64,000 bases of DNA from Massalongia carnosa. Taxonomy: Eukaryota. Below, one piece after another: positions 5,859 through 37,225 of this stretch. The translations under genes were made by a program, and so were the position numbers. The notes below the pieces were generated by a model. That model saw only the letters and a program-made list of their open reading frames with translations. It was not told where the DNA came from and did not search any database. Where the stretch lies: contig OZ287076.1 in NCBI GenBank assembly GCA_965645245.1, positions 1,736,001-1,800,000 on the forward strand, read 5' to 3'. How positions within the stretch are numbered: the first letter of the stretch is position 1; the number at the start of each line of letters is the position of its first letter.

Positions 5859-8800
5859 ATGAGCCTTGCAAAGCTAGTGGGGCAGGACGGCTCACCTAAT
5901 CATTCTGGTTCGCAGCACGATCTTCCTTCCACCAAAGAGCTCCTGAAAGATCCAAGTATTTCGTATCTTCGAGAGCTCACATCCCCAACGCATGCGGAGG
6001 TCGAGTAGGTAGCCCGTTCACAGCGAAATGAGAGTATTGTTACTTCTAATGCGCTTCTAGCCTCGTGGCCGTGCATGGCTTGAATTGGTCCAACGCCGCG
6101 GCCTTTGGGGTCAGAACATGGACGGCGGGGGCTAAGGGCAGAGAAAGACTATGGCTGAAGGACTTCTTACCGCATCGGCTTCCCAACGTGCGGGTTCTGC
6201 TCTACGGCTACAATTCCAATGTAGCCTTCCGCACCAGCAAGGTTGGCGTTGGCGACATTGCAGAGGATTTACTGCAGAAGCTGTGGTCGAAACGGCAGGT
6301 TCGAGCATTCTTGGAGGGATGGGGAAATACAAATATTGATCAAGCTCTCGGTATTAGTCTGCCCCTGAACGGCCTTTGCTGTTTGTCTGTCACAGTCTGG
6401 GAGGACTGGTTGTAAAACGGGTACAAATCCCAGCTACTGCATTTCATGTGTCTATGATTGAGTTCTTGGTTGCTAAGCTCATGTTCAGGCAGTTGTGAAA
6501 GCCAAATATATTCCTCGCTATCAGGCTATCAGCTTGTCCGCCAAAACATTTGCATTTTTCGCCACTCCGCATCAGGGTGGGCACGGTGCAGGCATAGGAC
6601 AAGCTGCTGCTGCTCTCGTCAGGCATGTTGGCATGAACCCCAGAAATGGCTTTATGGAGGCCTTGCGAAAAGACTCCCACGTGGCGCCTGATATACATAA
6701 TGATTTTCTTGAGGGGCAAAGCAATTACCACATCTGCAGTTTTTATGAGTGTCAACGATTGCCGTTTGTGAGTGATTTGGTGAGTCCATCGATCTGTCCT
6801 CCTAGGCTAGCCTGATGGTCTGTAGATTGTCGAGAAATCCTCGGCGGTACTTGGGCTTGGAACTTTGGAGATTCGGGTCCCATGTCCCAACGCAAACCAT
6901 TCATCGATATGTAAATTCGCGAGCGAAAACGACGATTACAGATTTGTCATTGACGAAATAGAAGCGCTTGTGGAGTGGGCAATCGGATCAGCTCCAGCTC
7001 TTCCAGCCAGCCTGGGGCAGTTATCGATCGCTTCGTCGATAACTCACAGGAATGACTACTCAACGTCCGAACCACGCCGCTCCCTGGCACCTCCGGGCTC
7101 TTTCATTCCGCCTTCCATAAGGGAAACTAATCTTTTTGATGAGAAAAGTGTTAGCCCCTTTCAAGAAATCCCAGCAGTAAATCGCCCTCCACGGAAAGGA
7201 CCATTCTTTCTTGTACCTTTCGACCAAAACTTCAATTTTGTAGGTCACTCGGATATTCTCAGTCGTCTTAGTGCCTTCCACAACCTATCAGTCAAGCCTG
7301 GCACGAGATGTGCGCTTTATGGGTTGGGCGGGGTGGGGAAAACCCAAATTGCTTTAGAACACAGTTACCGCTATCAGCGTGATAACCCAGACCATTCGGT
7401 CTTCTGGGTCTATGCAAGCGATGTCCACCATCTGCATGAGTCTTTAGGATTGATTGCATCCCACTGTAGGATTTCGCGAACCGATGATCCGACCGACGTT
7501 ATGCTGGCTCGGGTAAAGCACTGGCTTTCGGAGAGAAAAAATGGGTCCTGGATGATGATTGTGGATAATGCGCACTCGGAGGAGACATTTTCAAAACTCG
7601 TTGGGGGTGATCAAGGAAGTCAAGCCATACATCCCACCAACCCATCGTCGTCCGCCAGGGTCAATTCCTACATACCCGATTGTACCCATGGAAAGGTTAT
7701 ACTTACGACGAACAACCAGTTGACTGCAAGGGCTTTGGCCGGAAATGGGCATATCCTTGAAGTTCTCTCTATGAATCAACAGAATGCGTGTGCATTACTT
7801 CGCAAGTATCTGGCAAATGGAGAATCTGGCGCTACCTATGGCCGAGATATTTACAAAACAGAGCTTGCTGAGGACTTGGCCACTCTTGCTAGACGACTAG
7901 ATAGCCTCCCTTTGGCTCTCGTTCAAGCAGTAGCCTACATAAACATTACCTCGTTGAGTGTGGAAGAGTATTTGGAATTAATCGCGAAGAACGAAGCAAG
8001 CATACCCGGCGTGCTTGAAGCCGAAGGCCCTGGCCATGAGAGAAGCTTTGATCTTTCCAAAGCCTTCATGACAACGTGGAAAGTTGCTTTTGACCAGATC
8101 GAGATCACATGCAGGCTAGCGGCGGAAACGTTGTCACTGGTGGCATTTTATGACGCGGAACGCATACCCAAAGCTCTTTTTAGCCATTTTCAGACAGGCG
8201 GCTCACAATCTTCTGTTCAATCCCTTGAGAAGCTTGTCGCATATTCATTCATTAAAGTCGAACCTAAAGCTGAGACTTTCAGTGTGCATCGACTTGTTCA
8301 ATTAGCTATGCGCAAACGCCTTGATGCTTCCTACACGGAGAAGAAATGGGCTGTTAAGGCGCTCAGGCTGCTGTCCGAGAACTTTCCAAGTGGAGACTAC
8401 GAGTCTTGGGAGATGTGCACTGCGCTTGTCCCGCATGCTTTAAAGATTTTGAGCAATGAGCTATACGGCCCCACCGAGGCTATACCACTTGGCATTCTTC
8501 AGTCCAAACTCAGCTGGTACTATCTGGGGAGGGGTTTTTTTGCTCAGGCGGACATTTGGAGTTGCCGGGCGGTAAACCATATGATTTCTGCGCCTGACGT
8601 AAAGCAGAGCGATGTGTTGGCTATCAAAGCGAAACGGATCATGGTGTTGCAAAAGCTAGGTCATTTCGAAAACGCCGAGGACTTGGCGCAAGAGGTGTGG
8701 AGGGCACGTAAAAGTACTCTAGGGGCTAAGCATGAAGACACACTGCAAAGCTTCACCACTTTATGTTTGGTTTACCAGGTACTAGGTAGATACGCCGAGG

Positions 8801-9777
8801 GAGAGACGGCCATGCGAAAGATAATCAAGAATCTTGAGAGAAGCTGTGACTTGGATGATGCTCCGGTTTTAGCTGCGAAGCAGCGACTAGCCACAATTCT
8901 CTGGAATCTCGGCTGTTACGCTGAGGCCGAGGATTTTGCACGAGCAGCCATCAAAGGCTACGAGAAGAACTCGGGCGCCCGTCATCCCGACACGTTGAAA
9001 AGTTACTGGGTACTTGCGCAAATCTACCTTGGCCAGGGTAAGGATACAGAAGCCGAGGAAATGGACATGGAAACCTGGACAGTGCAAAAACAGGTTCTTG
9101 GAGTGGACAGCCATGAAACTTTGAAGTCACAGTATGCACTCTCCAACGACCTTCAAGCTCAGTCCAAGTTCGCCGCAGCCGAGGCTCACAAGCGAGAAAT
9201 CTATCACAAGTCTATCTGCTTGGTTGGCCCGACGCATTTTTACACTCTCACTGTTGCAGCGGGCCTTGCGTCGTGTATAACGGCGTCCGCCATCACCAGT
9301 GGCAACTTAGAACCAAACCGTCTCGCAGAAGCCGAAGCTCTGTACCAGCTTTCACTTAATGGTCGCGAGAAATTTTTGCCCCTGGATCACCTGGAAATCT
9401 TGGCTGTCCGTACAGATCTCGCCGCCCTTCGCCGCTTGCGTGGACAAGTCCCCCTTCCCGAACTCGAAGCATCGGAACGGGATACCCTGGCCAAGCTCAA
9501 GAAGCTTGTCGGCAAGACCCACCCCTTCACAGTTCGCAGCCAGGACAACCTTGCGCGTATCCTCTGGCTGCAGCGCCACGATAGCGCCAAGCGAAAGGAG
9601 GCACTGAAGAAGGCGAAGGCGGTGTTCGAGATTACGGAACAGAGGCTGGGTTGGGCCAAGCGGGGGACGTGGTCAGCGGCCGAACTGGTGGTGGAGATGT
9701 CGCCGCCGGAAGGGCGTGAAGGAGAGGAGTTGGCGCGGAAGATTGCCTTTTGGAGGAACACGATTGGGTTTGCCTGA
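5859..9777 (+). CDS. Fungal NLR: SesB-like alpha/beta-hydrolase + NB-ARC + TPR repeats
   Basis: ATG at 5859. GT-AG introns at 6005-6060, 6299-6357, 6421-6489 and 6780-6826 join in frame to give DLVAVHGL, WLKDFLP, RVLLYGYNS, FVCHSLGGLVVK (nucleophile Ser), FFATPHQG and ANHSSICKF. Walker A GLGGVGKT, Walker B WMMIVDNA, LPLALVQA, VHRLVQL, then TPR-type repeats (LGAKHEDTL, GARHPDTL, LGVDSHETL). Confidence 0.92.
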
Positions 9778-10918: not shown

Positions 10919-13414
10919 CTAGATACTCACCGCCATCTCATCGGCTGGATCATCACTCGCTGCCGCATCCCCATCTTCCCTCTCCATCATGCGTCTCCCC
11001 TTGGGAGACGGGGAACGTTTCCATTTCTTGTTTGGAGACAGTTCCTGGAGTGCTTGCTCATCCTTAGATACATCAACAACAGTCGATGAGACGGGAGACT
11101 CTTGTAGCGCCAGTTCGTCCTTGGAGGGATCGGCCATTGGCTCGTCGATGAAAACCGTTATTTGTTGATCCTTAACTTCCGTAACACTTGGCTTATTGAC
11201 GACGATATCCGGCGGTAACCCCTGCAGCGCTCGTTCTTGCGTGACTATATCCGTTGCGGGTTCATTGGAGAAATACCTCGCTCGCTCAAAGTCGATAAGC
11301 ATTACCCGTTCTTTTTCCTCGTTCCACAGCATATTTGGCCATCTAACGTCCCCATGGTCCACTCCCAATCCTTTTACTTCTCCAACTGTTCGCCAAACTT
11401 CCGTCTGGCTCGTATCGTCGTCTATCATCTTCCCTCCATAAGATAGCAAGAGCATATGCTTTATTTTGACGTCTAGGTCAAGGTAGTAGGAGCGACGGAG
11501 ATTAATGTTCCCTAGGTAGACTGGAATCGCTGCTCCTTGGAGGGTTTCCAGCTGCTGGTACATCTTACCCTCGTGTAGTAACGTAGGTATGAAAGCCCGT
11601 ACCGTTCCTTTGCCAACGAAGACGTAGCCGTGCGAAGTGAGCGCAATCCAGAAAAGAGCTCCTCGGGCTCCTTGCACATCAAGCGAGTGGCAATCAACGT
11701 CCAGAGTCTCTTTGAGCTGTGCTTGAATGAGTTCCATGAACGTTGTCAGTCCGATTGCGTGATGTGTGCCATCTCTAGGGTGTAGCGACGCATTGGGACA
11801 CGTTTCATCCAGGCGCAATCCTCGTACCATACCTAATAGGCAGTCTTGGGTGCAGTATTGTCGTTGTCTTCCCTGGCGGCTACTCGTACTGTTTTGGCCG
11901 TCACTTGGCTCGCCTCTGACCTTGCCGCGAGCTTGCGCTAGATTGCCCTTGCGTGATCTACGACTACGTGGGCTGGCGGGAGCGTCAGGATCCTCAGGTT
12001 CGTCGTCGTCAAGAAAGGGATCTTTGTCGTCAGAAGCACAGCTTGAGCTCATCCTGGCTCTTGCCTTTTCCTTTTCAATCGTCTTTGATCTGGTATGGTA
12101 GGGTGATTGCTTAGGGTTAGGATTCTTACGGCCTTTGTAGGACGAGGTTGGCGCTTGCTTTCTTTCAGTTGCAGGAATTCGTGCCAGCATGGTCTCCAAA
12201 TCAAGGTTCCACTTTTTCAATCCCTTCTTAGCATTATGACGCCAAGAATGAGTTCTTTGCTTCGATTGAAAAGACATCAGAGCCAGGCTCAATACCTGGC
12301 CTATGGCCGACTCCGGATATCTTTCATCGATTGCCTCGTCAATATCCTCACCAGGCATGGTCAAATGATAATACGCCGTGCTTGGGTCATCTTCTCTAAC
12401 GTGAAGGAAGACAAAAGCCTCACCGGTCGTAATGTAGCTATATTCAAGGCCGCTTCGAATCATATAATCAAACGTCTGCGTAACCACGGCGGCCACTAGT
12501 TGCTCCGCGGTATATTGCAGCCTCGCCTCAGTGACGGCCGGGTCTTCGCCTTCTTCCTTTTGGGGTGGCATTGTAGGCGTTGAAAGCAAGTAATCAAAAT
12601 CCAACGGTCGAAATCCCCTTGTCAGATTGTCGGCGGAGAGTCTGAACGGCGGTTTGTATTCGACGAGGAAGGCCAACTGGCGACTAGAATCCTGGTTCTT
12701 GAAAACACAGAATTGATCAGCGTTTGGTTTTTTGGGTCTTACTGAGGAATCGGATTCCGAGCCGGATGATGAGACTGATGTCGTAAGTTGAGAGCCTTGG
12801 CGAGGAGTTTGAAGTGCCATCTGTTGCACTTCTTCTGCAAGATCGCTGAGCGAGTTGATGTGATTCTCGAAAGTAATTCCTTTTTCCAACTTTAATTCTT
12901 TTCGAGCTTGCACGTTCTCGCAAAGATGACGGATGACTTGGGTGACCTGATCCTCTACCGCCAGCCGCTCGTAAAACTGGAGATCCCCTTCGCTCGTTAA
13001 TCTTCGTCCGCAATGGTCCTGCCCAATCCTTTCATAGTACGAGATGTTGCCAAATTTCCGCGGAGCTGGCCGGTCTGATGGGTGGAACCAGCAATATGCC
13101 TGATCAAAGACTTGCTGTCGTACTTCGGGGAAGCTCTCCCAAGGACAGATTCTTCTAGGATAGTACCGATTCTTAGGCTTCGTGAAGCCTTTAGTCGTCC
13201 ACGCTAGATTTCTTTCGATCCTGAGAGCCTTGTGGAGGTGTTCATGGCAAGTCTTCAAGAACTCCTCAAACGTTGTCTCCTGTGCCCGTCGGTTTGATTC
13301 CTCTACCTGCCGGTTTGCCTGCCTTAGAAGTCGCTTAGCTTCCTCTGCTTCTCGTCTTGATTGGTTCACAAGTTCCTGAAGCTCTTGAAGAGTCAATTCA
13401 GATTCAGCAGACAT
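10919..13414 (-). CDS. Spok: Spok-family protein (coiled coil + PD-(D/E)xK nuclease + Cys cluster + kinase-like domain), 831 aa
   Basis: Intronless ORF. N-terminal coiled coil followed by TTFEEFLKTCHEHLHKAL...RYYPRRICPWESF. Nuclease motif ADQFCV...LVEYKPP, then QTFDYMIRSGLEYSYITTGEAFVFL. Cys cluster YCTQDCLLG...CPN. Kinase HGDVRWPNMLW...LIDFE. Domain order matches Podospora SPOK proteins. Confidence 0.85.
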   Translation of the reverse strand: MSAESELTLQELQELVNQSRREAEEAKRLLRQANRQVEESNRRAQETTFEEFLKTCHEHLHKALRIERNLAWTTKGFTKPKNRYYPRRICPWESFPEVRQQVFDQAYCWFHPSDRPAPRKFGNISYYERIGQDHCGRRLTSEGDLQFYERLAVEDQVTQVIRHLCENVQARKELKLEKGITFENHINSLSDLAEEVQQMALQTPRQGSQLTTSVSSSGSESDSSVRPKKPNADQFCVFKNQDSSRQLAFLVEYKPPFRLSADNLTRGFRPLDFDYLLSTPTMPPQKEEGEDPAVTEARLQYTAEQLVAAVVTQTFDYMIRSGLEYSYITTGEAFVFLHVREDDPSTAYYHLTMPGEDIDEAIDERYPESAIGQVLSLALMSFQSKQRTHSWRHNAKKGLKKWNLDLETMLARIPATERKQAPTSSYKGRKNPNPKQSPYHTRSKTIEKEKARARMSSSCASDDKDPFLDDDEPEDPDAPASPRSRRSRKGNLAQARGKVRGEPSDGQNSTSSRQGRQRQYCTQDCLLGMVRGLRLDETCPNASLHPRDGTHHAIGLTTFMELIQAQLKETLDVDCHSLDVQGARGALFWIALTSHGYVFVGKGTVRAFIPTLLHEGKMYQQLETLQGAAIPVYLGNINLRRSYYLDLDVKIKHMLLLSYGGKMIDDDTSQTEVWRTVGEVKGLGVDHGDVRWPNMLWNEEKERVMLIDFERARYFSNEPATDIVTQERALQGLPPDIVVNKPSVTEVKDQQITVFIDEPMADPSKDELALQESPVSSTVVDVSKDEQALQELSPNKKWKRSPSPKGRRMMEREDGDAAASDDPADEMAVSI

Positions 13415-15511
13415 ATTTATGAAGTGGCAAATTTAAGTAGCGGTTTGGGAATGACCACATCGCTTAGGATGTTTGGGAGGTGTTTTTCTGGTAAGGTTGT
13501 TTAACAATCACCAGCAGCAAAATCAACAGCACTAGGCAGTATTAGGTGTAGACTTGTTTGGAGGGCGTTGTCCGGGGCATTGTTCTAACTTAGGGCTGAA
13601 GTACGAGTACCCCGCCTTGCCTGTTGTTCCTTTGAGATCTCAGTCAATCATACTTCACTAAAGATTTTCAAAACTCCTGAAAAAGTGGAAAACGCCCTGA
13701 AATTTAATCGTTTAATATGTTGAGGTTATCAAAAAAGCATTCGACGAGGGTGTCGTGACTGTGAAACAAGGAATTTCTGCGACTTTTTCTTGTCAACCGC
13801 GTGCCATGCCGCTCCTTGTTGCCAAGACTTGATTCTACCGGAGGGAGAAGCCGGTCCGAGTTGCAGCCTTGCCGTTCATATCGAGCCATTCCAATAGCCA
13901 ATATTGAGATTATGTCCGTCATGACTCGGTATAGAGGATTCGGGTTTATATATATAGTTTATTAGAGTAGCACAGTAGGTATGAAGCGTATTCGGTATAT
14001 ATTCCGTACACGCATCTGTAGCTCTCCATCCCTATGTACTCATCCTCCCACGAACGATGCTGATGCAACCCCACTCGGAACCAAAAGCGTCAACAGTTCG
14101 CCTCGTCATCGCTGGAGATAAGGCTGAAATGATGATCATCAACGAGCATGTCAGATGATCAACGTCCCGCATCGGTGCTATTCGGTGCTTCCGTCCGGAT
14201 GCGGCAGCCATGAGATTCCGATTTAACTTTCTGATCTTTTGATTCTGCAGGGCACATCCACTCTTGCAGTTGCAGGCGCGTTGGCCACAAGCTCGCATGC
14301 CTTGATCACTGATCAGGTCATGCAATCATACTATGTATCAGCGGATCGTATTTACCAGCGGTTAATGAATATTTCGAAAGAGACGATCACGGCTAAATGC
14401 AGAGGGAATTCAAATATAGTCCCTCACATGATTGCCACAAAAGGCTTAGACTCAGGTACCAAAACACGCGGGCGGTGAATAGTGCCAGCGATCCGGATCC
14501 CGATCCTCCCGACCCCAGCACCCCAGATTCCAACATTAACGTTGAGCCTAAGGCTTTCCCGCATGTGATAATGTTGGCACCAATCAATCAAACCATTTCA
14601 ATTGGAATTCAGGACCTGACTAACGTTTCATCCTCGTCTATTCACCAATCAACGACCCATCGCATTGCAGTGCAGATTAGGGTTAGGGATCCCATTCCGA
14701 ACGAACGGGAGATTACTCTGTTCCTTCGTAGTTACAATTTGTATGACGGAGTGCCTCTGCTGATATCCGTCCATCCATCCATCCATCCATCCCTCCCTCC
14801 ACCCATTCGGTCGGTTCGCTTCGGTTCGGAGTGAACATGCAGAAGAATTTCAACCGAACAGCAGGTGAGTACAAAGTAGGCACTCTGTAGGCTGCAGAGC
14901 CTGGCAGTGAAGTGATTTAACCTTATGCTGCTGCCCAGCGCGTGATGTGACGCCTTGCAAGCACCTCCCACACGCACCCGTTGGATGAGCCTGAATTAAT
15001 CCATTGCACGTTCATGGCAGGACATGCTTTGCCCTAACCCTTAGTCACCCTTAACCCCAAATTGTTTCATATACCTCCCATGCCTCCCCATCATTTCTTT
15101 TCCAGTCTTCTCTGCCCTGCACCCACTTTCCAAATTATTTCTTGCTCTTGTTCTTAACCTCTGTTGTTTCTGGAAAACATCCACTGTCACTATCCTCCAT
15201 ACTTGGCTGCCGTTCATCGGGTCTATCAATTCGTGTTCATTGGAAATAGTTCAAACACATTCACTCTCGTGTCCACCTGCGCCCGAGCGCTATTTTCTCC
15301 TCATTGCGGGTAAAACGTTCCTTGTCAAGCGAGTCGTAATTTGTCGCGAGGACAAAAAGCATTAGCTCAACCAAGCGATCTCCTTCACAAACCGGCACTT
15401 CTTCGCAGCAGACTCATCACAAATCCAAATCGCAGGATCTTGTTGGCCAAACAGTGTCATCTACCCCCTCACTCAAGCCAAAACCCCCAATCCTTTCAAC
15501 TGTTCGTCCAA

Positions 15512-19644: not shown

Positions 19645-20805
19645 ATGAATCATCTTCTGCTTCCCAGTAGCCCTGCCCCATCAACTGTAGGAAAAGTCCC
19701 TTGTGTAGCCGTGGAAGAATATATTGGCAGGTCATTCCTTACATATCGAGCGCGGAAAGACAAGATCTGGCCGTCATCGAGCGAAGATGAAGGAGCTGAT
19801 GACTCTTAACCAGGATATAAGGTGCAGACCGCTAGCCCATCAGATTAAAATGGAACATCGATCATTGAGACTATTCAAGCCCTCTACGCGAATGGTTTTG
19901 CAACAAAATGAGTTTTTTGGAGCAAAGCAAAAAATGGACGAGGTTCTCATGGATGTTGGCACCGCTCTGGCTCAGCTTGATACAATTTTATTTCATCATT
20001 CAACCAGCGTGGATGCTGATGAAGCATTGTGTATCGGAATACTATTAGATCTCCCCGTCATGGAGATCTTGAATGGTCCGGAGACGGCAGCTTCAAGGAT
20101 TGGGAGAGTCTAGAAACTGATTGCAGCGCAATACGGAGGTCTTCTCAGAACATGCTCTGTATCGAGAAACCTAAAATGGAAGAGCCGGGCCTGGATGGGC
20201 ACCGAAGAGTTTGCTTACTCGCACTCACCGAATGGGTTTGTTAGACAGATTAATGAAATGGGAGAGAGAAAGCTCGGGGTTCCGGTAGGCTCCAGGCTAC
20301 TTGTGAACTGTTCAGGACTTAAATTGGCGCTCAGGTGCCCAGATGACGAACTAAGAAATGATGATGGAATCTAGTATAAGCTTTTCGCGACCTTCAAGCC
20401 TCTGAGTGGTCTTGTGCTGCCGATATAGGAAGTAGACTCATATGGAAGACGATCATGGGAAGGCTTAGCAGCCCAAGATAACCGAGCACACAAATAAAAT
20501 ATTTTTTTATTGAATCTAAAAGTCATCTTACCGTCGCAGAGCTCCCTTCACGACGCCACAGAACGATTGGCTCGGAAGTTAAAGTCGACACCCACTCACA
20601 GATCGATTGTTCAGTCTTCTGCCTGACAAAACAAGCATGTAGTGCAAAGAGGCAATCGTGGCATTGAAAGATCCTGCTTTAGTTCATCCTTATCTCGGAT
20701 TCGATTTTAGGATATTGGGGAGTTTACTGGTGATTTGTGGCTGATTGTTCAATCATGACTACGTTAGGACGTGACTACCGGCTAGTCAGCAATGGTGCGT
20801 GGACT
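19645..20805 (+). pseudogene. Internally deleted, degraded HET-domain-family gene
   Basis: N-terminus MNHLLLPSSP...VPCVAVEEYIGRSFLTY. Post-HET block HSTSVDADEALCIGILLDL...RV*KL with a TGG>TAG stop at 20111. Frameshifted PGL/WAPKSLL and terminal SQQWCVD. These match the N- and C-terminal motifs of a common fungal HET-protein family as I recall them; the central HET domain is absent. Confidence 0.6.
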
Positions 20806-21200
20806 CGCATGTTTTTCGGCATTTGTACTGTGAAGAATATAACTAGTAGGGATTTAAAGGATCCTAACAAAAGACCATATGTGGCCCTTTACCCGTAGAA
20901 TTCGTCAACAGCCATACAGCATTCGAGGTAAGTTATACCATATTGCTTATGACTCTTGGTTGCGTAATCTCGCAGATGGGCATACAATGATCGATTTGTT
21001 AGATAAGCCAGAAATAATTAAGGAATTCACAACGCTCAGATACCCGTCTAGGCATCATAGAAAATTGCTTGCTCTTTATCCTATATCCTTGGACCTCGAC
21101 AAGCAATTTAACGGATTGGTAATACTAGCCGTAGCTATAGAGTTCCTTAGTACGATAAGCAATTGGGTACTTATTGATCCTAGAAAAGCTTTGGAGACTT

Positions 21201-23023
21201 TCAAGCTGAGTCTGTGAATGCCGTCAAGCCACAGACTACCATGGCGAAATAAGATCCTGCGGCAGACGGTCTTCCGTTCGCAAGGTTCTCTGTATCAAAC
21301 CCAGTGTTCAAACAATATTTCACAGCGTCATTGTATGCGCTGCCAACCCGAAAGCGAAGTTTGCTGTTATTGATCGTCCTCTCTAGTAGCTTTTCTCGCC
21401 GCTCATGACGATAGGATTGGGGATCGGCAACTAGCTTACCCGTGAGAGTTTCAAGCGGCTCCCAGAATGCAATTTGCAGCAGAACAAGGCCAAGGGCATA
21501 AATATCGTAACTATTTTCCTCATTAGTGTCTTTTAGTAGAAATTAGGCGCCTGTGAGCGGCAATACCTCTTTTGAAATGGCATGCCATCTTCATGATTTG
21601 GATGACGATATTCGTCCTCAGCTATGTTATGTACGTTCTCCGAAAGTCCCTTGTCTCCGAAATCACGGGAGAAATCGAATCCGGTTAGATATGGGGAGTC
21701 GATATCAATCTCGAATGCTGAGTCTCGGTGGAAGAACAAAATGTTTTTGGCCGAGATGCACTTGTGGAGCATATTTACCTGATGGAGCCCAGAAAGGGCC
21801 TTTGCAACCGCGTGGGAAAGCTTGAATCGTGTTTCCAGCGGTGGTTTACCACCGTACCTCGCGCACAGGTAGCTCTGGTTGCGTATGAGTTGATCGAGAG
21901 ATTTCGGAGGATGGATGCGCGACGCAGAAAGCGGAAGTTTGTACACGATTCCAACTTCGGATGGATGATGACCTATGTGGTAGCCAACGCAGGTCAACGT
22001 TTTGAATGTTTCCGGAGAGTTTGACGACAGGAGTTGCACGAGTTTTTGAATTCTCTGGATACCGATTTCTTCAGCGGTTTTGTCGGCGGTCTTGTGGCTT
22101 AGGAAGCCCTTGCGTTTCCACTCCACCAAAACCTGTGTATTCGAGTCTTGAGTGGGCGTCCAGCTCGCTAGAGTACGAAATCTCGTCTCTCTGTCATGAA
22201 ACTCGAGCTCTCGGATACCTAGGTGTTTGTTCATGCCGCTCTTTTGACGAATCGCCGTGGCAAGGTTCTGCGACTTGAGCCCCGCCATCTGAGAAATATC
22301 AGGATGGATTTCGGACTCGGCGGCACATATTTCGGCCAAAGCCTCAGGGCTGTTTGAGTTGAGTGTGTCGAAGTGAGAGAGTTCCCTAACCTCTGTTCGG
22401 GCTCTGGTTTGAAGCAGAGAATAAAGCGCATCATTCAAACTCTTCAGTTCATTGACCAGAACCTTAAATTTTGCTCGGTCACTCAAGACCCATCGACATT
22501 TGGAAAACGCCGATATTCGCGCCTGGGCTGACTTAGCTATCTCGCGATATTGAGACTTGAGTTCCACCATAGGTGTCCAGTTGTTCAAAGATTCATAAGT
22601 CATCTGTTGCTCTGGAGTTTGAACACTCTCCGGCAACGCCATGCTACCCTCACCTTCCATCAACGACGAATCATCCCGCAATCCATATCGCGCAACGAGT
22701 TCATGCGCATCGCTGACACGCAAAGCAATCAAACAAATTGTGTTGAGTACCTCCTTGTCAATAAATTGGCCCTGCCTGATCTTCCATCTTCCCTCGTCCG
22801 CTCCTGTGGTTTCACCCCATGCGCGAAATCGGCAACCTTCCATGTCGAGCTGGATAAGCGCTAATCTGGAATCCCTCCCAGTTGACCTGAATTTATTAAT
22901 GAACTGATACCCAGCCTTCCCAACTTGGAAAAACTGATGAATCAACACCGGAGCACCCATGGTCACTGTAGCCCCTTCCATCTTAACCGTCAGGTAATCG
23001 TTGCCGCTTTCAGTTTCTGACAT
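21201..23023 (-). CDS. HeLo (prion-inhibition)-like domain + pseudokinase protein (MLKL-like architecture)
   Basis: Exon 1 23023-21567, intron 21566-21511 (GTATTG...CTAAT...ATAG), exon 2 21510-21201 (SYDIYALGLVLLQIAFW...AVKYCL...TGA). N-terminal HeLo signatures QLDMEGCRFRAWG and KCRWVLSDRAKFKVLVNELKSLNDAL. Kinase-fold motifs VLVEWK, LHKCISAKNILFF, PYLTGFDFSR, YRHP. The start may instead be the second Met at 22981. Confidence 0.88.
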
Positions 23024-23581
23024 GAAAAGTTTAATTAGTGACAGAACTTAGCAGATCTCCTGAGGGAAATGATAGCTGATCAATTCTCGTCGAAAGTTTA
23101 CTCTACCCCAGGTTTGTGTGGATAAAACTCGGAGTGCTCAGCTCCGACGAGGCTGGCGGGGGCTATGTTCAATGCTGTCTCATCACATACCTTGTAGGGG
23201 AGAGATGAGGCGAAAACTCGCAAGAAAGCTAGGCTTCCATTGCAAAAAGAGAACCAAATGCCCACTTTCCCACCACCGCCAGCCTAAGCCACTTTTTCTT
23301 GATAGGCGCGTTTCTGCTTCTTGTCGCTCTTGGTTTATTCTTCGCTCTTCTTAAAAGTTAAAATAAACCACGCGACGATGAAAGATATAGAAAAGAACGA
23401 CATCGAAATGGGAAAGACAATAACTCGAAAATGCGTTCATACAAAAATGGCTTTGACAAAGAATGATTTTAAAATGGCATATTAGCCTAGCATATGCCAA
23501 GCCTGCAGCATAAAAGCTGTCAGCCTTGTGTTACTCTACCCATCAGCCTTATTGGACTCCAGGATTTGGTCATATATCTTG

Positions 23582-26500
23582 ATGGAAATATGTACAGAGA
23601 AACACCACTACTCATTAAGAATGGGCTCCAGCTTCTCCGGAAACCCATGGCAAACCACCGCCACTGACGAGACGTTTTTTCTTAACACTCTCCCCGCTAA
23701 GCTCTCTAAACGAGTTGGTCGGACCTATGAGCTAGATTTAATGACTTTTCATGCGTTCTTTAATTTAATCACAAGTTATGTGGTTGATTTTCCCGCGATT
23801 CCTCGCGAACCTGGGTTATCGAAGGCGTTGGGTAACGTTACCGGCAAGGGTGAGGTTGTTCGAGCCACTGGTTCCTCTATCAAGAAACGCACTTTGGTGG
23901 CATTCCGCGGGGCTTCGAAAACCACTGAGCACGATATTCGGCCGTTTATTACGGAACTGTTGGTGCTCCTCCATCCTTACCTTCGACAGGAGCCTCATAT
24001 TGTGAATCTTGTTGGTTTTGAATGGGAAGCCTCTGAACCTCTGAATCGCATAGACTATGCAACCGAAATCTGGCCAGTTCTGAAAATTGAGTTCGGTGAT
24101 CATGAGACAATAGATAATTTCCTCGAATCCAAAGTTCTGGAAGACACGTTGCACTTAAGGCGAAGTCTCTGCCAGCACATTGGCACAGGACTTAAAGCGC
24201 TTCATAAGTGCCATATAGTAGGTCTATTCAACAAAATAGCACGACTTACTCATTCCTTCTAACACGATTCTATCTTCGAACAGGTACATGGGGATCTGAA
24301 GCCTAAGAATATTGTTATATTTCGAGCTGATACCGAGCTAGGGTTCGTTGCAAAACTGTGTGACTTCGACCTTTCCCTCATCGTCAATTTACTAGATAAG
24401 AATCCAGTGAAGCTACCAGGCCACAGCGAACCTTGGACTGCACCAGAAGGGAAAACGTTAAAAGTGGCCTCGGATTTCTTTTTATCTGACGTCTATTCTT
24501 TTGGCTTGATTGTCTGGAGTTGTTTTACAGTTGATCAAGAGTATTTTGAGCCGAGAAGTATACAAGCTGGTGCAGGTATCATGATTTTGAAAGCACAAGA
24601 CAAGGTTTTAAATACAGCATATTCATCGATACGCTCCACCTTGCTATCTTTGAAACCCGGGAGGAATACTCGTGAAGAATTGGAAACTTTCTGCAACGAT
24701 TTATTGGAAGTTTTCAAGAATACATTGACTTTCGACCCTCAGCTTCGAAGTCTTAATAATGCAGTCGCTTATCTGTCCTCATATCAGCCCACACCGCTCA
24801 GGTAAAGCTCGGTTCATGGCCTTAGAAGATCGTGCTTACTGATAAAAGAGTCTCTGCAGCGAAAACTTCTCATCAGTTTCACCCGAGTGGCCACCAATAT
24901 ACTATTTCCCTCTACGAATGATGGCCCAAGACACTATACTTGTGAAAATCATTTGTTTCTATTAAAGCTTCGTCGCTGATACGAAGCCAGAAGAACCTTC
25001 ATGGTAACAATTACTACGAGATCCCAGGTTCTCGTGCCGTTGCTAAAGCTTCGGTCTCTACATGCGAACACGTATTTTCCCGGCCGGAGTACGAGTCATT
25101 TATGTTACGTTCAGATGCAGCGGCGTTTCTCTTCAGGTGTCATCTTGAGGGTTATGGAGTTCCGATGCTGAGCAATAGTCATGAAACGGCGCTTAGATGG
25201 CTCTCAAAAGCCTTGGATGTGGAAATTGAAAACAAAGAACAACCAGCCCCTTGGCTAATGGAAGTAGATTTGATTTATGAACGACTTGGATTCTCTATGC
25301 CATTGAAGACAGGTCTTAAAGAACTCATTCAACGAGCGATTATGATACATTTGTCGGAGCCATATTACTCCCAATGGGCCATCAAAAGGGTCTGCAACAA
25401 GCATCGAATAGATTTTGAGCAGATTTTTGAGCACTTCCGGGACCAAGGACTATTCGCTTTAGGGTTGTTTGATGAGGAAATCACGGCATTATTTAAGGGT
25501 AAGAAATCCTGTCAGCAAATATTGCAAACATTAGACCCCAAGGAACGGCTTTCGAGGAATGGGTATACTATGGTTCATCTTGCCGCATCATGTGGAAACT
25601 TGGACATTTTAAACCTACTATATCGAAGGTACCAAGCTGATCTCAATGTCATGGACGATATGGGTATCACTCCAATCTGGCTTGCAATTCACTACTCCCA
25701 TGCAAATGTCGTTGAATGGCTTATTCACCAAAATGTGCCTGCGAACTCGCTTTTCCTTAGGGGAGGATCATCCTTTGCAATATTGCCACGCTTTCGAGAC
25801 GACGAGCATACTAAAGTAGCTGCTGCGCTCTCCCTCGGTGGTTGCGACATAAATGACTCTATAGCAATTACAAACGCCTCATATACCCTACAAATATTGT
25901 CCTGGGCGGCAGTCTTTACGCACCCGAATATCGTGCAAATTAGTATGCTCCCTAGATCGTATCAGTCATTTTTCTTGACGCTTATTTGACAGCAGTTTTG
26001 GACCAAGAGCCATCCGATGTGTCATGCGCGTATGCAATGGGATGGGCAGCCTCGGTGTGTCAATTGGAAAATTTTCTTCTGATCGAAAGCCATCGTCGTA
26101 ATCATTTCCAGTACGCTCGAACTCGAACTGAAATGGCAAATTACCTTCGCTTGGCCGTGACACAACCTCCTTTTGCCAGGCTTTGCAACTCGTCTAAGCC
26201 CAGCTTTCGGCAGTGCGTCGAACTATTTTGCAGCGAAACTGGGAATATTTCCAAGGAACTATTACTAACTTGGGCTACCTATGCCATTCAGGGTGGCGAC
26301 TTCGAATCATTTGAAATTATCCTATCACATACAGGGATCGAACAACTTAAGGATAGAATGCCGCTTCCCGAAGACGCAAATAATGGGCTCAGGGGCTTGG
26401 TAGAGCACGCTCTGATGTTTGATAGAAGAGATATATTCGATTTGTTGATTTCTCGAGGATTTGGCGTCACTGTTAATAGTATTGATAAACTATATCCAAC

Positions 26501-27668
26501 GCTTTTCCACACGGCAGCTCATCGAGAACTCAACAATGGGCGGTACTTCTGCGGTGTTTTAGCAAGTCATGGCGAAGACATCAAAAAGCGATGTGGAGAG
26601 CGAAACGGCCATGTTTCCGCTCTCGAGATTGCACTTGTTTACGGCAATCTGGATGTCGCAGACTTCTTGATTCAATCTGGAGCGCCGTTGGACTTCGAAA
26701 CTGGTCCCGAAAATTCTATTTTGGGAGAAATGATCATGTCCATGACCGAGGAAGCTGTCCCCAACATTGAATTTGTGCTCAGCCATCCCCAAAGCTCTCC
26801 TAGGTTCGTCGTTCATGCTGCCTCGAAGACAACGCTCCTTCATCGGGCAGCAGGGCCGCTTTTTCCGGCCAACAAGTCATGGCAGAATGACGCCAGCATG
26901 ATCAGAGGCCCGCAAGCCATACTTGAGATCCTGTTGAAGCACTATGCCGATCCGGTATACCTCAATGTACGAGATTCCATCGGATGTACGCCGCTACATA
27001 CTGCCGCCTACCGAGGCTTTGATGCTGGCGTACGCCTCCTCCTGGAGGCAGGCGCCGACCCATATCTTCTAAACTGCCAAGGTATGAATCCAGTTCTTTA
27101 CACCATGCCGACGTTTTTCATGGACAGGCTTGAGAACACCGCGTTTTTCTATGAAGGGTTCGACAACAACATCCAGAGCTACGCCATCGTCTCGAGAACG
27201 GGCCGAAATCTCTGCCGCGAGTTGCTCACGGATTGCAGCGGCAACCCAATGCTTACCGAGGTGGGCTTCATGCAACGCTTCCTAGCCTTCTTCGGATTCA
27301 TCGATTTGACCAAAGGCGACGACGAAGACTACGAACCCTGGGAGCTAGAAAAAAGCCCGCACATTTCCAAGTATTTTGTATCGAGACGGAAGGTCTGGCA
27401 TGCTAGGAGATTGCAACAGGAGAAACGGGCCCGTCTTGAAGAACCAAAAGCAGGGAAAGATAGGGCGACAGCTATGAAAGAGCCATCGCCTTCGTTGATT
27501 AGAGTTCTGATGGCTGCGATTCAAATATGGATTTATAGCCACGTTTTCCCTGAGGTACGGCGACTCGATGGAGTTCCCGAGAGTCGCCTCATCGAGTATA
27601 AAACAGACAACGCCCCAGTGTTGGACGACCTTGACGGAGAGAACGAAATCGAGGCTGATCATTGCTAA
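23582..27668 (+). CDS. Protein kinase + Sel1-like repeat + ankyrin-repeat protein
   Basis: Kinase motifs ITELLVLLHP, HIVNLVG, HI|VHGDLKPKN (intron 24218-24283), KLCDFD, WTAPE, SDVYSFGL. Intron 24802-24859. Splicing at 24942-25114 is uncertain but a phase-compatible path exists. Sel1-like CHLEGYGV...ALRWLSKA. Ankyrin repeats TMVHLAASCG, TPIWLAI, SALEIALVYG, TPLHTAAYRG. Intron 25943-25992. Alternative start at 23621. Confidence 0.8.
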
Positions 27669-28079: not shown

Positions 28080-30428
28080 TAGGCCTGGGAAAGTAGCGCT
28101 AGATATTTCAACCTAGCGATATATATTATTTAGCGCTGTTTATCGCTATTTATCAATCATTTTTATACACCACACCCTGTAGATGATCAAGATTTCTTTC
28201 TGTATAATATTAATAGTATTGATGCAGCTATTCTACGTTCCTTTATTATCTTTTGTCACCTTCTTGTCATCCCTTCATTGTTGTTGTCAATAAATAATGC
28301 GTGCTTATTATTTTTTACACCCGGACGCGGGCGGGCCGAGCCCAAAAAAAATCTCGTACTTGATTGTAGATGACCCCAAGGCAATACATACATAATTATA
28401 TCATCTACTATTAATTTGACAGAAAATTCTTAAATCAAAATTATGGAAAACATCAAAGGCCCCGTCCACGAGCAGTTCACCACCGAAGCCAATGAGCTAG
28501 GTGCCTTTAAAACCACCCGCGTACGATGCAAACACTGCGGCCATTCCCTCGTTGAGCAAGCAAATAGAATGACAAACCATCTCGAGAAATGTCTTTCGTA
28601 TAGGCAGTCTTTAGCAAGAAAAAACAAGACTACGGATATCAGCGCAAACGTTCATAAGTGTGGACCGAGCGAGCAATAGAGGTTGGACAAGCTGGCAGGC
28701 ATGGCAATCTTGGCTGGAGGACCTTCATTCAGTACTCTTGGTAAATGGATCAAGCCTGATATGTGGGAATTCATTCATGCATTGAACACAGCATATAAAG
28801 TTCCTAATCGTCATCGTGTTGCTGAGGAACTGCTTCCTCAATGTTATAATCAGGTATCGTCAGATGTCAAAGAGCTTCTAAGAGATGTTCAGTTCCTCAA
28901 TTTTGTCTGTGACAAGTTCGATGATAAAGCACGTCGTCGCATAGCAAATCTATCAGTAAACACTCCTCAGCAAGGTGCATTCTTCTTACGGAACTTTCAT
29001 ACAAAAGACAAAAATCAAACAGCGTCCTTCTTGACTTCTCTTATTATTCCGGAAATTATCGAGGCTTGCAATAATGATCTCAGTCGCTTCAATAGTTTAG
29101 CTACTGATACTTGTGCAGTCATGAGAGTCATGCATCACTTGATGGAACAAGACCCACGATTTTCTCATGTGTTCTTTGTACTTTGCGACTCTCATGAAAT
29201 TCAACTCTTGTTTAAACGGATTCTTGAATTACCACACTATGCAAAATTGATAAAAAATGCGCAAGTTATTGTTGCTGGATTTGCTCATAGCAGATTGCAA
29301 TTGAGTATTCTTCGAGAGTATCAGCAGTCTTTGTACAATGGAAAGATCATGGCTTTAATTATTTCGGTTATTTCACGATGAGGAACGCAATATGGCCTCT
29401 TTAAATCCTTGCTTTGATCTAAGGATGCACTGAGAGCTTATGCGGTGGACACTCGTGCTACTCTTATGTTCAGTAAAAAGGACATCTCCTATTGACTATT
29501 TGATAATTTGTTTTGGCAAGCTATCAGTGATCTGGAGGAAAATCTTGCGTCTCATTCATGAAGCCCAAAAATTCTGAGTCAGACGAATCACACTTGAGTC
29601 ATGTAGTCAAACGATGATTTGACATTAAAGAAGCACTCACACGCTTGAAGGATCGACTCGACAATCATTTCCCTAGCTTGGAGGAAGTATGCAGATCCGG
29701 TGATATATGAGACGATCTCTATCAACAAAAAACAACCGACATTCATTCTGTGACTTTTTTTCTTGATTCGTTCAATGTTGATGAGCCTCTTGCAGCGGAG
29801 ATCTAGGTCAAAGTATTTTCTTTTCTGCGAAAATATATATACTGTAATGATGAAGCTTGGGTGAAAATTATAGAACACTTCTTTCAATTTCGAGAGAAAC
29901 AGGGAAAATTCAATCGACAAAATCCTTGCGACATTTGGAGTCTTCCTTTGATGCAACGTCTCAAGCTGTTTTGATAGCATTGCAAGTCAATTTCATCTTT
30001 GCTAGGTCAATTTGTGCATCGTATCTTTTCGACATCTGTCAACTCGGTGCCAAGTGAACGTTCTTTTTACGTTATGAATTACATCATTGATAAGTTCAGG
30101 ACGAGTATGGAGATGGAAAGGAGCAATCAGGTCAGTTATATCTACATGAATAGTAGGGTACTTCGACGAGTCAAAAAGTCAGCTACTGAATGATGCTGAG
30201 GAGCAGGCTTTAGAGAATGATATTGTCGCAATGTTGGAAGCAAAAGAAGAGATGAGATTCGATGAAATAGGGATGGGCGAGATGACTGAATTAGTCTTGT
30301 AGGCAGTAGAATTCCTCGAAATAGGTATAATCTATTTGTAGGAATGATTTTTATTTTCAAACCTAGCGATATATATCCGCTACATATCGCGAGGCGATAG
30401 TAGCGCTACATTAGCCGTCCCAGGCCTA
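28080..30428 (+). mobile_element. hAT-superfamily DNA transposon (2349 bp), non-functional transposase
   Basis: 11-bp TIRs TAGGCCTGGGA (28080-28090) and TCCCAGGCCTA (30418-30428). 8-bp TSD GGGGTAGA at 28072-28079 and 30429-30436. Subterminal repeat ACCTAGCGATATATAT at 28111 and 30361. Confidence 0.93.
28443..30193 (+). pseudogene. hAT transposase pseudogene (BED zinc finger, DDE core, dimerisation domain)
   Basis: BED finger RCKHCGH...TNHLEKC, FVCD, LATDTC, CDSH (CxxH), ISR*GTQY (W to stop) and C-terminal PSERSF. Interrupted by several stops and frameshifts. Confidence 0.88.
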
Positions 30429-35971: not shown

Positions 35972-37225
35972 AGCAAGTGCCGGAGGTTGGCAACCCAGAA
36001 ACGGAGGAAGATGGGAGACAAGATTTTGTCTTCTCTATTGACATTTTCTATTGTAGTTACTTGGAAATCCAATTAACTCGTTAAGCAGTTAATTTGCAGA
36101 GAGCCAGGCATACTTCTGGTTGGATGAGTCCTGAAACAACGCCCTCCAAGGATTCATAACTAATATTGTCGGCATGCAAATGCTTGCACAAGACAATCAC
36201 CGAATTGCTACACACCTATTTTGTTACCGGTTCAATAGATCATACTTCAATTTCTATCATCTGGAATAGCTCCATCGAGCACTCTCGACCTACTAATAGA
36301 ATTTTGTGCCACAACTTGATATCTAGCCAGCGGATCCATAAATGCGTGGCATGAAAGTCAATTCATCATCTCGATTCCCTGGAAGCATCGCCTTGTTAGC
36401 TTTGTCATTGCTCATGTAAGATGCCTAAATTCAAGGTCACTGAAGGTCAGACAGAGCTTGGTCCCTACCAGCTTAAGCTTGGAGATCAGACATCAATCTT
36501 GTTGTAGGAATCCTCGTGGGCTCTTAAGTGACAGAAGCTGAACCAAAAATGAGTCACTTTGCCTGGCTTTTGACCTACATATATCTCAATCATGGATTGA
36601 TTATGGGTTGCTGCATGTTGATGCTGGATGATGGGTTTGGTTAATTAGGCGGCACGGCACGCTAGCCGAGGGTTGATACTTGGCATTCACGTGGTAATGC
36701 GTAAATATATCACATGACTGAGGCACCCGTGCGTTCACGAGTAAAGCTCTCAGCCACACATTTTACTCCCATCACCATCGAATTGATGATAAGCTGGATT
36801 GCCGTACTGCTTATGCATTTTTGATATGAATCATTGCCATCAGCATGGATCGATCCCTGGGAAGCCCAAGGCCCAGCGACTCAACGCCAAGCTCAGAGAA
36901 GAGTGTTAGGGAATGCTTGAAGAACATGAACAAGCCATATGCAGCTAAACTTTACAGGCAGAGCGTGGCGTACTGGTAAAGGATGCAGAGAACAGGTAAC
37001 AGGGTAGAATACCTGATCCCATTGCATAAATACCAGCCTCCCGAACCTCCAAAGGATGTGTGATACTTGCAACACCATGTGATAATATTTCCCTTGGCAA
37101 GAGGATTCCAGAACACAAAAGCGTCTACGAGTCAGAATCTTTGCATTCATATACTCCGAGGACCCTTCCGGAAAAATACCAGGGCACTCATTTTTAACGC
37201 CGTTGTTCCCAAGTCCAGCGCTGAC

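Follow-up and report, generated by a model that had tools for sequence, protein, structure and literature searches.

A 64,000-nucleotide stretch of Massalongia carnosa DNA (the window) contains two divergent genes, one joining a HeLo domain to a degenerate kinase fold and the other encoding a kinase with ankyrin repeats. We propose, at somewhat better than an even chance, that the pair forms a phospho-switch working like RIPK3–MLKL, with phosphorylation, binding, and toxicity all predicted from sequence and by analogy. What the analysis adds is a candidate kinase acting upstream, S461 as the one predicted phosphosite, and a putative phosphate pocket of three residues (R324, K421, and R453).

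The HeLo-pseudokinase gene lies on the minus strand of an intron-bearing fungal genome (52 Mb in 25 contigs), 0.72 of whose words occur in a lichen metagenome run, and has the following parts.

21201..23023, minus strand: HeLo-pseudokinase gene, two exons (23023-21567 and 21510-21201)
21511..21566, minus strand: predicted 56-nt intron (GTATTG..CTAAT..AG), placed from the DNA and the family consensus
21201..21510, minus strand: exon 2, predicted to encode the remaining pseudokinase C-lobe; fits the family consensus DxYSLGxVLLEIxxW
22367..22936, minus strand: HeLo domain (PF14479; Pfam E = 8.3e-25), four long helices in the AF2 model
21567..22234, minus strand: exon-1 part of the pseudokinase domain (residues 264-485), a kinase fold by Foldseek

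Exon 1 encodes 485 residues (translation 23023..21569), and by the predicted splice exon 2 opens with YDIYALGLVLLQIAFWE. Judging by the alignment of the second Met (22981) with Met1 of a 62%-identical homologue, the protein may start there instead. The original prediction placed the degenerate domain at 21567..22200, an interval that covers solely its exon-1 part; the rest of the C-lobe is encoded by exon 2. The HeLo match scored 88.2 bits, above the Pfam cut-off of 23.2, and HET-s/HET-S HeLo structures were the top PDB matches of the family profile (E ∼1e-24). Kinase-like matches were weak by Pfam. An AF2 model built on a 146-sequence alignment (mean pLDDT 85) combined an N-terminal helical bundle, linker helices, and a kinase fold, whose best structural match was MerTK (Z = 14.0, rmsd 3.0, 192 aligned). 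The C-terminal part is thus modeled as a kinase fold and not as an amyloid prion-forming domain. On the 3′ side of the gene, plus-strand positions 19700-21217 hold short broken ORFs with no Pfam match, possibly a decayed gene.

All three residues diagnostic of an active kinase (β3 Lys, HRD Asp, and DFG Asp) are lost in this protein, where E301, C422, and G448 take their places.

22121..22123, minus strand: E301 at the β3 (VAIK) lysine position; the profile sets vlvE on mouse MLKL VTIK, and the residue falls in model strand 294-304
21758..21766, minus strand: HKC in place of HRD; catalytic Asp gone, basic residue retained
21665..21682, minus strand: GFDFSR in place of DFG; Gly in 146/150 and Arg in 142/150 homologues; R453 at +5 is a putative phosphate ligand

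The translation confirmed both motif readings proposed earlier, the catalytic loop LHKCISAKN without a catalytic Asp (H420-K421-C422, window 21766-21758) and GFD in place of the Mg-binding DFG (LTGFDFSRDFGDKGLSEN, with G448 at 21682). The degeneration is real in this gene but not special to it, being a fixed signature of the family across 150 homologues. These are the best 150 of 2,117 clusters retrieved by full HMMER (E ≤ 0.001), versus just 2 relatives from a word-indexed protein search. H420 is invariant (150/150) and is followed by Lys or Arg in 139/150; position 422, that of the catalytic Asp, is Asp in 11/150 and otherwise free (G, S, A, N, or C). None of the 150 has Asp at the DFG-Asp position or Lys at β3 position 301, which is Glu in 143. 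The 11 homologues with Asp at the catalytic position therefore still lack both the β3 Lys and the DFG Asp. Because the degeneration is near-uniform across the 150 homologues and many copies in the genome, it is old and fixed; as judged from sequence, the HKC/GFD motifs characterize a large fungal family (2,117 clusters) and do not reflect the decay of one gene. Fold and lost residues together also support the proposal that the kinase fold behind the HeLo domain is catalytically dead, and leave its role as a conformational switch a prediction.

How far does the family resemble MLKL? The motifs quoted for the human protein were correct: in the parts of the papers available, HGK is stated in PMC11893596 and GFE in PMC12463104, the latter giving HRN for mouse MLKL. 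HRN and GFE are also visible in our profile alignment to mouse MLKL (PDB ID code 4btf). The basic residue retained at the HRD-Arg position makes HKC resemble mouse HRN more closely than human HGK. The proposed parallel with MLKL holds for GF[DE], for the absent catalytic Asp, and for a conserved loop Ser/Thr, but it is incomplete, the β3 Lys and αC Glu also being gone. In the profile alignment, the αC-Glu position falls on Leu (L328). In contrast, MLKL keeps both residues (K219/K230 and E239/E250), retention of the β3 lysine being stated in the available part of PMC11893596. The Lys-centered latch described for MLKL cannot apply here, since the β3 Lys is lost; with the lysine of that latch lost, the family is not filed under MLKL and may work alike. 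We also considered an inverted β3-Glu/αC-Arg salt bridge, E301-R324; the profile puts the αC-Glu position at L328 and not at R324.

The family profile searched against the PDB ranked 4btf as the best-scoring kinase (E = 1.2e-13), matched in a single stretch over both domains, with IRAK4 behind it (E = 2.4e-10). The profile was required; a single-sequence search of the pseudokinase exon against the PDB returned only c-KIT (E = 1.8). Structural comparison with MLKL, suggested as a check, gave mixed rankings, and the likeness may reflect common descent or convergence. Foldseek, which ranks RIPK2 first, placed 4btf third with modest E-values and an rmsd of 16 across both domains, but no MLKL chain was among the 50 entries listed in a structural re-ranking led by MerTK, EGFR, and JAK pseudokinases, a result still compatible with a relation. 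At the level of architecture, the protein shares with vertebrate MLKL a helical domain of membrane-targeting type, linker helices, and a pseudokinase, and differs in having a fungal HeLo domain where MLKL has a short 4HB.

The predicted regulatory site and one of its putative ligands are located as follows.

21641..21643, minus strand: S461, the loop Ser/Thr at +13 from the DFG-Asp position; predicted regulatory phosphosite
22052..22054, minus strand: R324 in αC, four residues before the αC-Glu position; putative phosphate ligand, Arg in 131/150 homologues, in model helix 315-334

Activation-loop serines had been put forward as candidate phosphosites; of the two, conservation strongly favors S461, since roughly one homologue in three has Ala in place of S452. 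Ser or Thr occupies +13 in 124 of 147 homologues (84%), at an exact ungapped offset from G448, compared with 5–27% for any single offset in the ranges +7 to +12 and +14 to +21. The same holds for 30/30 further metagenome homologues. S452 (window 21670, +4) was rejected as the main site: it is Ser/Thr in 97/147 and Ala in 47, and it corresponds to the S/R position in GFEL[S/R]K of MLKL. In a divergent subfamily, the loop Ser/Thr lies at +11, not +13, from the DFG-Asp position (L053:6808-8397, L036:1211-2749, and L047:1006-2658).

The +13 position is the canonical one of PKA-type RD kinases. According to the part of PMC2823524 available, PKA (DFG = 184-186) has its pThr197 bridged by His87 in αC, Arg165 before the catalytic Asp, and Lys189. 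From this numbering, Thr197 lies at +13 and Lys189 at +5. The αC Glu of PKA is residue 91. The fungal protein likewise has Ser/Thr at DFG+13 and basic residues in αC, before the catalytic position, and at DFG+5; unlike PKA, it is without all the catalytic residues. The three pocket positions (R324, K421, and R453) are all basic in 119/150 homologues and are accompanied by Ser/Thr at 461 in 107/150. From these counts and the PKA analogy, we infer a retained phosphate-reading pocket in the pseudokinase, whose activation loop is modeled at pLDDT 66-69. The human MLKL switch cannot use such a pocket in the same way because it has Gly at the HRD-Arg position. RIPK3 sites in MLKL are given as S345/S347/T349 and T357/S358 in the available part of PMC11893596. 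The 4btf profile alignment sets +13 opposite mouse T349 (residues numbered by reference to S345 and Q343). The essential, main mouse site, S345, is at +9, where only 21/147 family members have Ser/Thr; the fungal family does not conserve that site and keeps the PKA-type basic pocket instead.

Facing the pseudokinase gene is the candidate upstream kinase, of which the original prediction made no mention.

23024..23620, no strand: 597-bp intergenic region common to the divergent pseudokinase and kinase-ankyrin genes
23621..24805, plus strand: partner kinase domain (Pkinase, E = 3.2e-9), with HGDLKPKN, DFD, and an intron at 24218-24283
24946..27668, plus strand: C-terminal part of the partner, ankyrin repeats (Ank families, E down to 3e-14); putative sensor

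Full-length kinase-ankyrin homologues suggest that the ankyrin part is joined to the kinase exons. The partner has the HxD (HGDLKPKN) and DFx (DFD) motifs and an αC Glu (E112). Its β3 residue was R96 in two alignments and K89 in two others; residues 86-90 form a strand in a low-confidence model (pLDDT 66) that was built on the K89 alignment. Its homologue has the same Arg at the R96 position, and by sequence the β3 residue may be Arg rather than Lys. Unlike in the vertebrate RIPK3/MLKL system, the candidate kinase in these fungi is a linked kinase-ankyrin or kinase-WD40 gene. Just 3′ of the partner gene is a transposase-like remnant (DUF659; 28434-29381, plus strand). Elsewhere in the window, an NLR-like gene ∼11 kb from the pair combines a P-loop (GLGGVGKT) with TPR repeats (6826-9777, plus strand), and an 837-aa ORF (10919-13432, minus strand) has a weak C-terminal kinase-like (Kdo) match, with similar pieces beside other loci. 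An intact 979-aa ORF with a weak RVT_1 match (E = 0.0075; 37064-40003, plus strand) lies amid housekeeping genes and may be a cellular rvt-type gene.

The pairing recurs across the genome, where at least 28 pseudokinase loci were found among 39 matches. Our survey took in ∼10 kb of upstream flank at each of the 28 loci and, at most of them, the downstream flank as well. A kinase domain lay within 10 kb at 19 of the 28; at 7 others an ankyrin gene was accompanied by a 42-residue kinase remnant, 1 had an ankyrin gene only, and 1 had neither. Kinase neighbors occurred in 8 of 10 paralogue lineages (grouped by eye), and three paralogues of the partner gene each face a pseudokinase match. A control in the opposite direction placed 9 of the 11 best matches of a paralogous partner kinase within 10 kb of a pseudokinase, compared with 0 of 25 weaker kinase matches; the share of the genome within that distance is 1.1%. 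Two partner-type kinases (C10:1624k and C5:301k) had no pseudokinase in the flanks examined.

Partner tails vary, most being ankyrin and those of one five-copy lineage being near-identical WD40 repeats. In that lineage (L047:3134-6561 at G000 C21:496-499k, with L045, L048, L050, and L052), a kinase with active motifs (HRDLKP and DFG) is fused to ∼14 such repeats, which are reminiscent of those in HET-E-type NLR sensors. These WD40-kinase genes are head-to-head with a pseudokinase whose N terminus has no Pfam HeLo match. At another locus (L042:6460-8391, G000 C1:3069-3071k), the pseudokinase has an N-terminal ILDCCYAG, no Pfam match, and an opposite-strand partner-type kinase ∼6.7 kb off; the motif is reminiscent of a caspase-like catalytic motif. 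Twelve near-identical tail-to-tail pseudokinase/kinase-ankyrin units are spread over G000 C4, C7, C9, C13, C15, C16, C18, and C20 (L029-L034, L037-L041, and L043). Many of these copies have stops, kinase deletions, or transposon insertions, transposon pieces often flank them, and the two genes seem to have been duplicated together, as one block.

Pairing extends to other fungi. The 62%-identical pseudokinase homologue and a 66%-identical homologue of the kinase are each recorded on a contig of 6,959 bases, and the members of a Trichophaea pseudokinase/kinase pair are each recorded on one of 96,072 bases; the equal sizes suggest, short of proof, that each pair shares one contig. We scanned metagenomes with the pattern WLHKG[LI]RSxN, which picks out one subgroup and is not matched by the window protein itself. 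The scan gave 157 relatives, of which 80 were kept and grouped into 31 clusters at 55% identity; 21 of these clusters had a flank of ≥3.5 kb to one side. A kinase profile was run over each of the 80 loci, and Pfam over 86 of the 202 ORFs that flank 29 representative loci. An adjoining kinase gene was present in 14 of the 21 informative clusters (9 head-to-head, 4 tail-to-tail, and 1 tandem; 12 with ankyrins). Raw pairing is just 17/80 loci because two conserved unpaired clusters make up 45 of them. We did not count as partners a strong housekeeping-type kinase that the largest unpaired lineage has ∼3.3 kb downstream (L079, L100, L102, and L110; including it gives 15/21), an SNF1-type kinase close to L101, or the kinase-like and ankyrin pieces on the upstream side of L104. 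The two large unpaired lineages, whose members are linked at ≥55% identity, have no kinase-repeat neighbor; their surroundings hold a metallophosphoesterase and a prephenate dehydrogenase, and a Zn-cluster factor. The largest is head-to-head with a calcineurin-like metallophosphoesterase in 5/5 representatives run through Pfam (L079, L082, L098, L100, and L112), which is possibly plain synteny or a phosphatase partner. The +13 Thr was present in 16/16 unpaired loci examined; because unpaired lineages keep it, the site is independent of a neighboring kinase and broader than the pairing.

These patterns bear on what the neighboring kinase would do. Under a guard or toxin-antidote logic, the partner would keep the HeLo protein inactive through phosphorylation of S461 or through binding, and interference with the kinase, whether from a pathogen or from an incompatible allele, would bring death. 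This logic accounts just as well for the tight linkage, the conserved site, and the pocket. In PKA, an activation-loop phosphate with its full set of ligands is stable, as described in the part of PMC2823524 available. However, seven genome copies keep only a kinase remnant, though their pseudokinases often carry stops or insertions, and unpaired lineages persist intact. We regard such restraint by the partner as unlikely.

Those unpaired lineages raise the question of whether the protein kills at all. It could be a non-lethal scaffold, phosphorylated by general kinases or serving as an allosteric partner of the neighboring kinase, with a HeLo domain that assembles or tethers without forming a pore. 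The 45 unpaired loci sit in stable housekeeping neighborhoods, and the fold is generically tyrosine-kinase-like, both in keeping with a scaffold. However, the N-terminal helix is hydrophobic across the family (median Kyte-Doolittle 1.57 in 81 proteins), characterized HeLo domains are membrane-targeting in the text available from PMC12881547, and in this genome the rise in copy number, the decay of copies, and the exchange of repeat tails look like the behavior of defense genes. Such a non-lethal role seems to us quite unlikely.

The window copy itself departs from the family in this helix, which scores 0.99 (6 of the 81 are lower) and is modeled at pLDDT <50 for most of residues 1-20. By comparison, the pair at G000 C20:282-284k has a strongly hydrophobic first helix and an unambiguous β3 Lys. 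The family could then be a phospho-switch of which this particular pair is attenuated or drifting toward loss, in keeping with the weak first helix, the possible Lys-to-Arg change at the partner β3, and the many paralogues with stops. In a second natural isolate, the pseudokinase has at least 11 amino-acid-changing and at least 5 silent changes, which fit this reading but are too few to judge selection. However, the reading frames of both genes are open in the window and in the second isolate, the latter with no indel inside coding exons, and all switch residues are intact. The homologue has the same features, and identity to it is higher in the pseudokinase (153/220) than in the HeLo domain (120/216). 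Attenuation of this pair is in our judgment improbable.

Finally, an atypical active kinase, with D450 as metal ligand and K303 or K421 as ATP lysine, draws on conserved D/E at 450 (105/150), K/R at 303 (135/150), and Asn427 (136/150) and on the 11 homologues with a catalytic-position Asp, but it is very improbable given a family with no β3 Lys, no DFG Asp, the 11 lacking both, and an otherwise free position 422.

In the phospho-switch that we favor, the partner’s repeat tail would sense a non-self or damage signal and activate its own kinase, which would phosphorylate S461 of the pseudokinase. Phosphorylated S461 would dock on R324, K421, and R453, ordering the loop and moving αC without catalysis. 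The HeLo N-terminal helix would thereby be freed, and the protein could oligomerize, permeabilize the plasma membrane, and kill the compartment.

Comparable arrangements are known in outline. Genes of fungal death pathways commonly come in clusters of two or three, and some fungal HELL domains are fused, in a manner that recalls MLKL, to a kinase or pseudokinase, according to the available part of a 2025 review (PMC12881547), the latter in a figure legend. Those HELL/HeLo fusions have the architecture described here; neither a partner kinase nor a phosphosite, motif analysis, or experiment appears in the legend and text available. In HET-S/NWD2 of Podospora anserina, as described there, a HeLo effector and a putative repeat sensor are likewise encoded side by side. 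The present pair differs in having a pseudokinase instead of an amyloid prion-forming domain and a kinase-repeat protein instead of an NLR. Plant MLKLs (10.1101/681015) and wheat Pm13 (PMC10951266) also fuse a HeLo-type domain to a kinase-like domain in immunity, a likeness drawn from the descriptions in the portions available. Our literature search, in which most subscription papers, figures, and supplements were beyond reach, turned up no publication that describes either the kinase pairing or the +13 site; the accessible parts of PMC10197012 and 10.1101/2022.03.16.484565 contain no description of a HeLo-pseudokinase/kinase pair. Characterized fungal HeLo effectors are, per the portions of reviews available, triggered by amyloid templating or carried on NLRs.

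More broadly, filamentous ascomycetes may have a widespread and diversifying necroptosis-like pathway without an amyloid step, in which repeat-tailed kinases (ankyrin or WD40) would phosphorylate a linked HeLo-pseudokinase at the canonical loop position. The pseudokinase, having shed every residue for catalysis and ATP anchoring while retaining the PKA-type phosphate pocket, would serve purely to read the phosphate and so trigger a pore-forming domain. We hold this generalization tentatively, at somewhat less than even. The 2025 review, in the part available, calls for work on the extent of necroptosis conservation in fungi (PMC12881547). With a candidate kinase, a predicted site, and a pocket in hand, kinase-triggered fungal necroptosis becomes testable with two genes and a few point mutants, in a natural pseudokinase that seems to retain the regulatory pocket alone.
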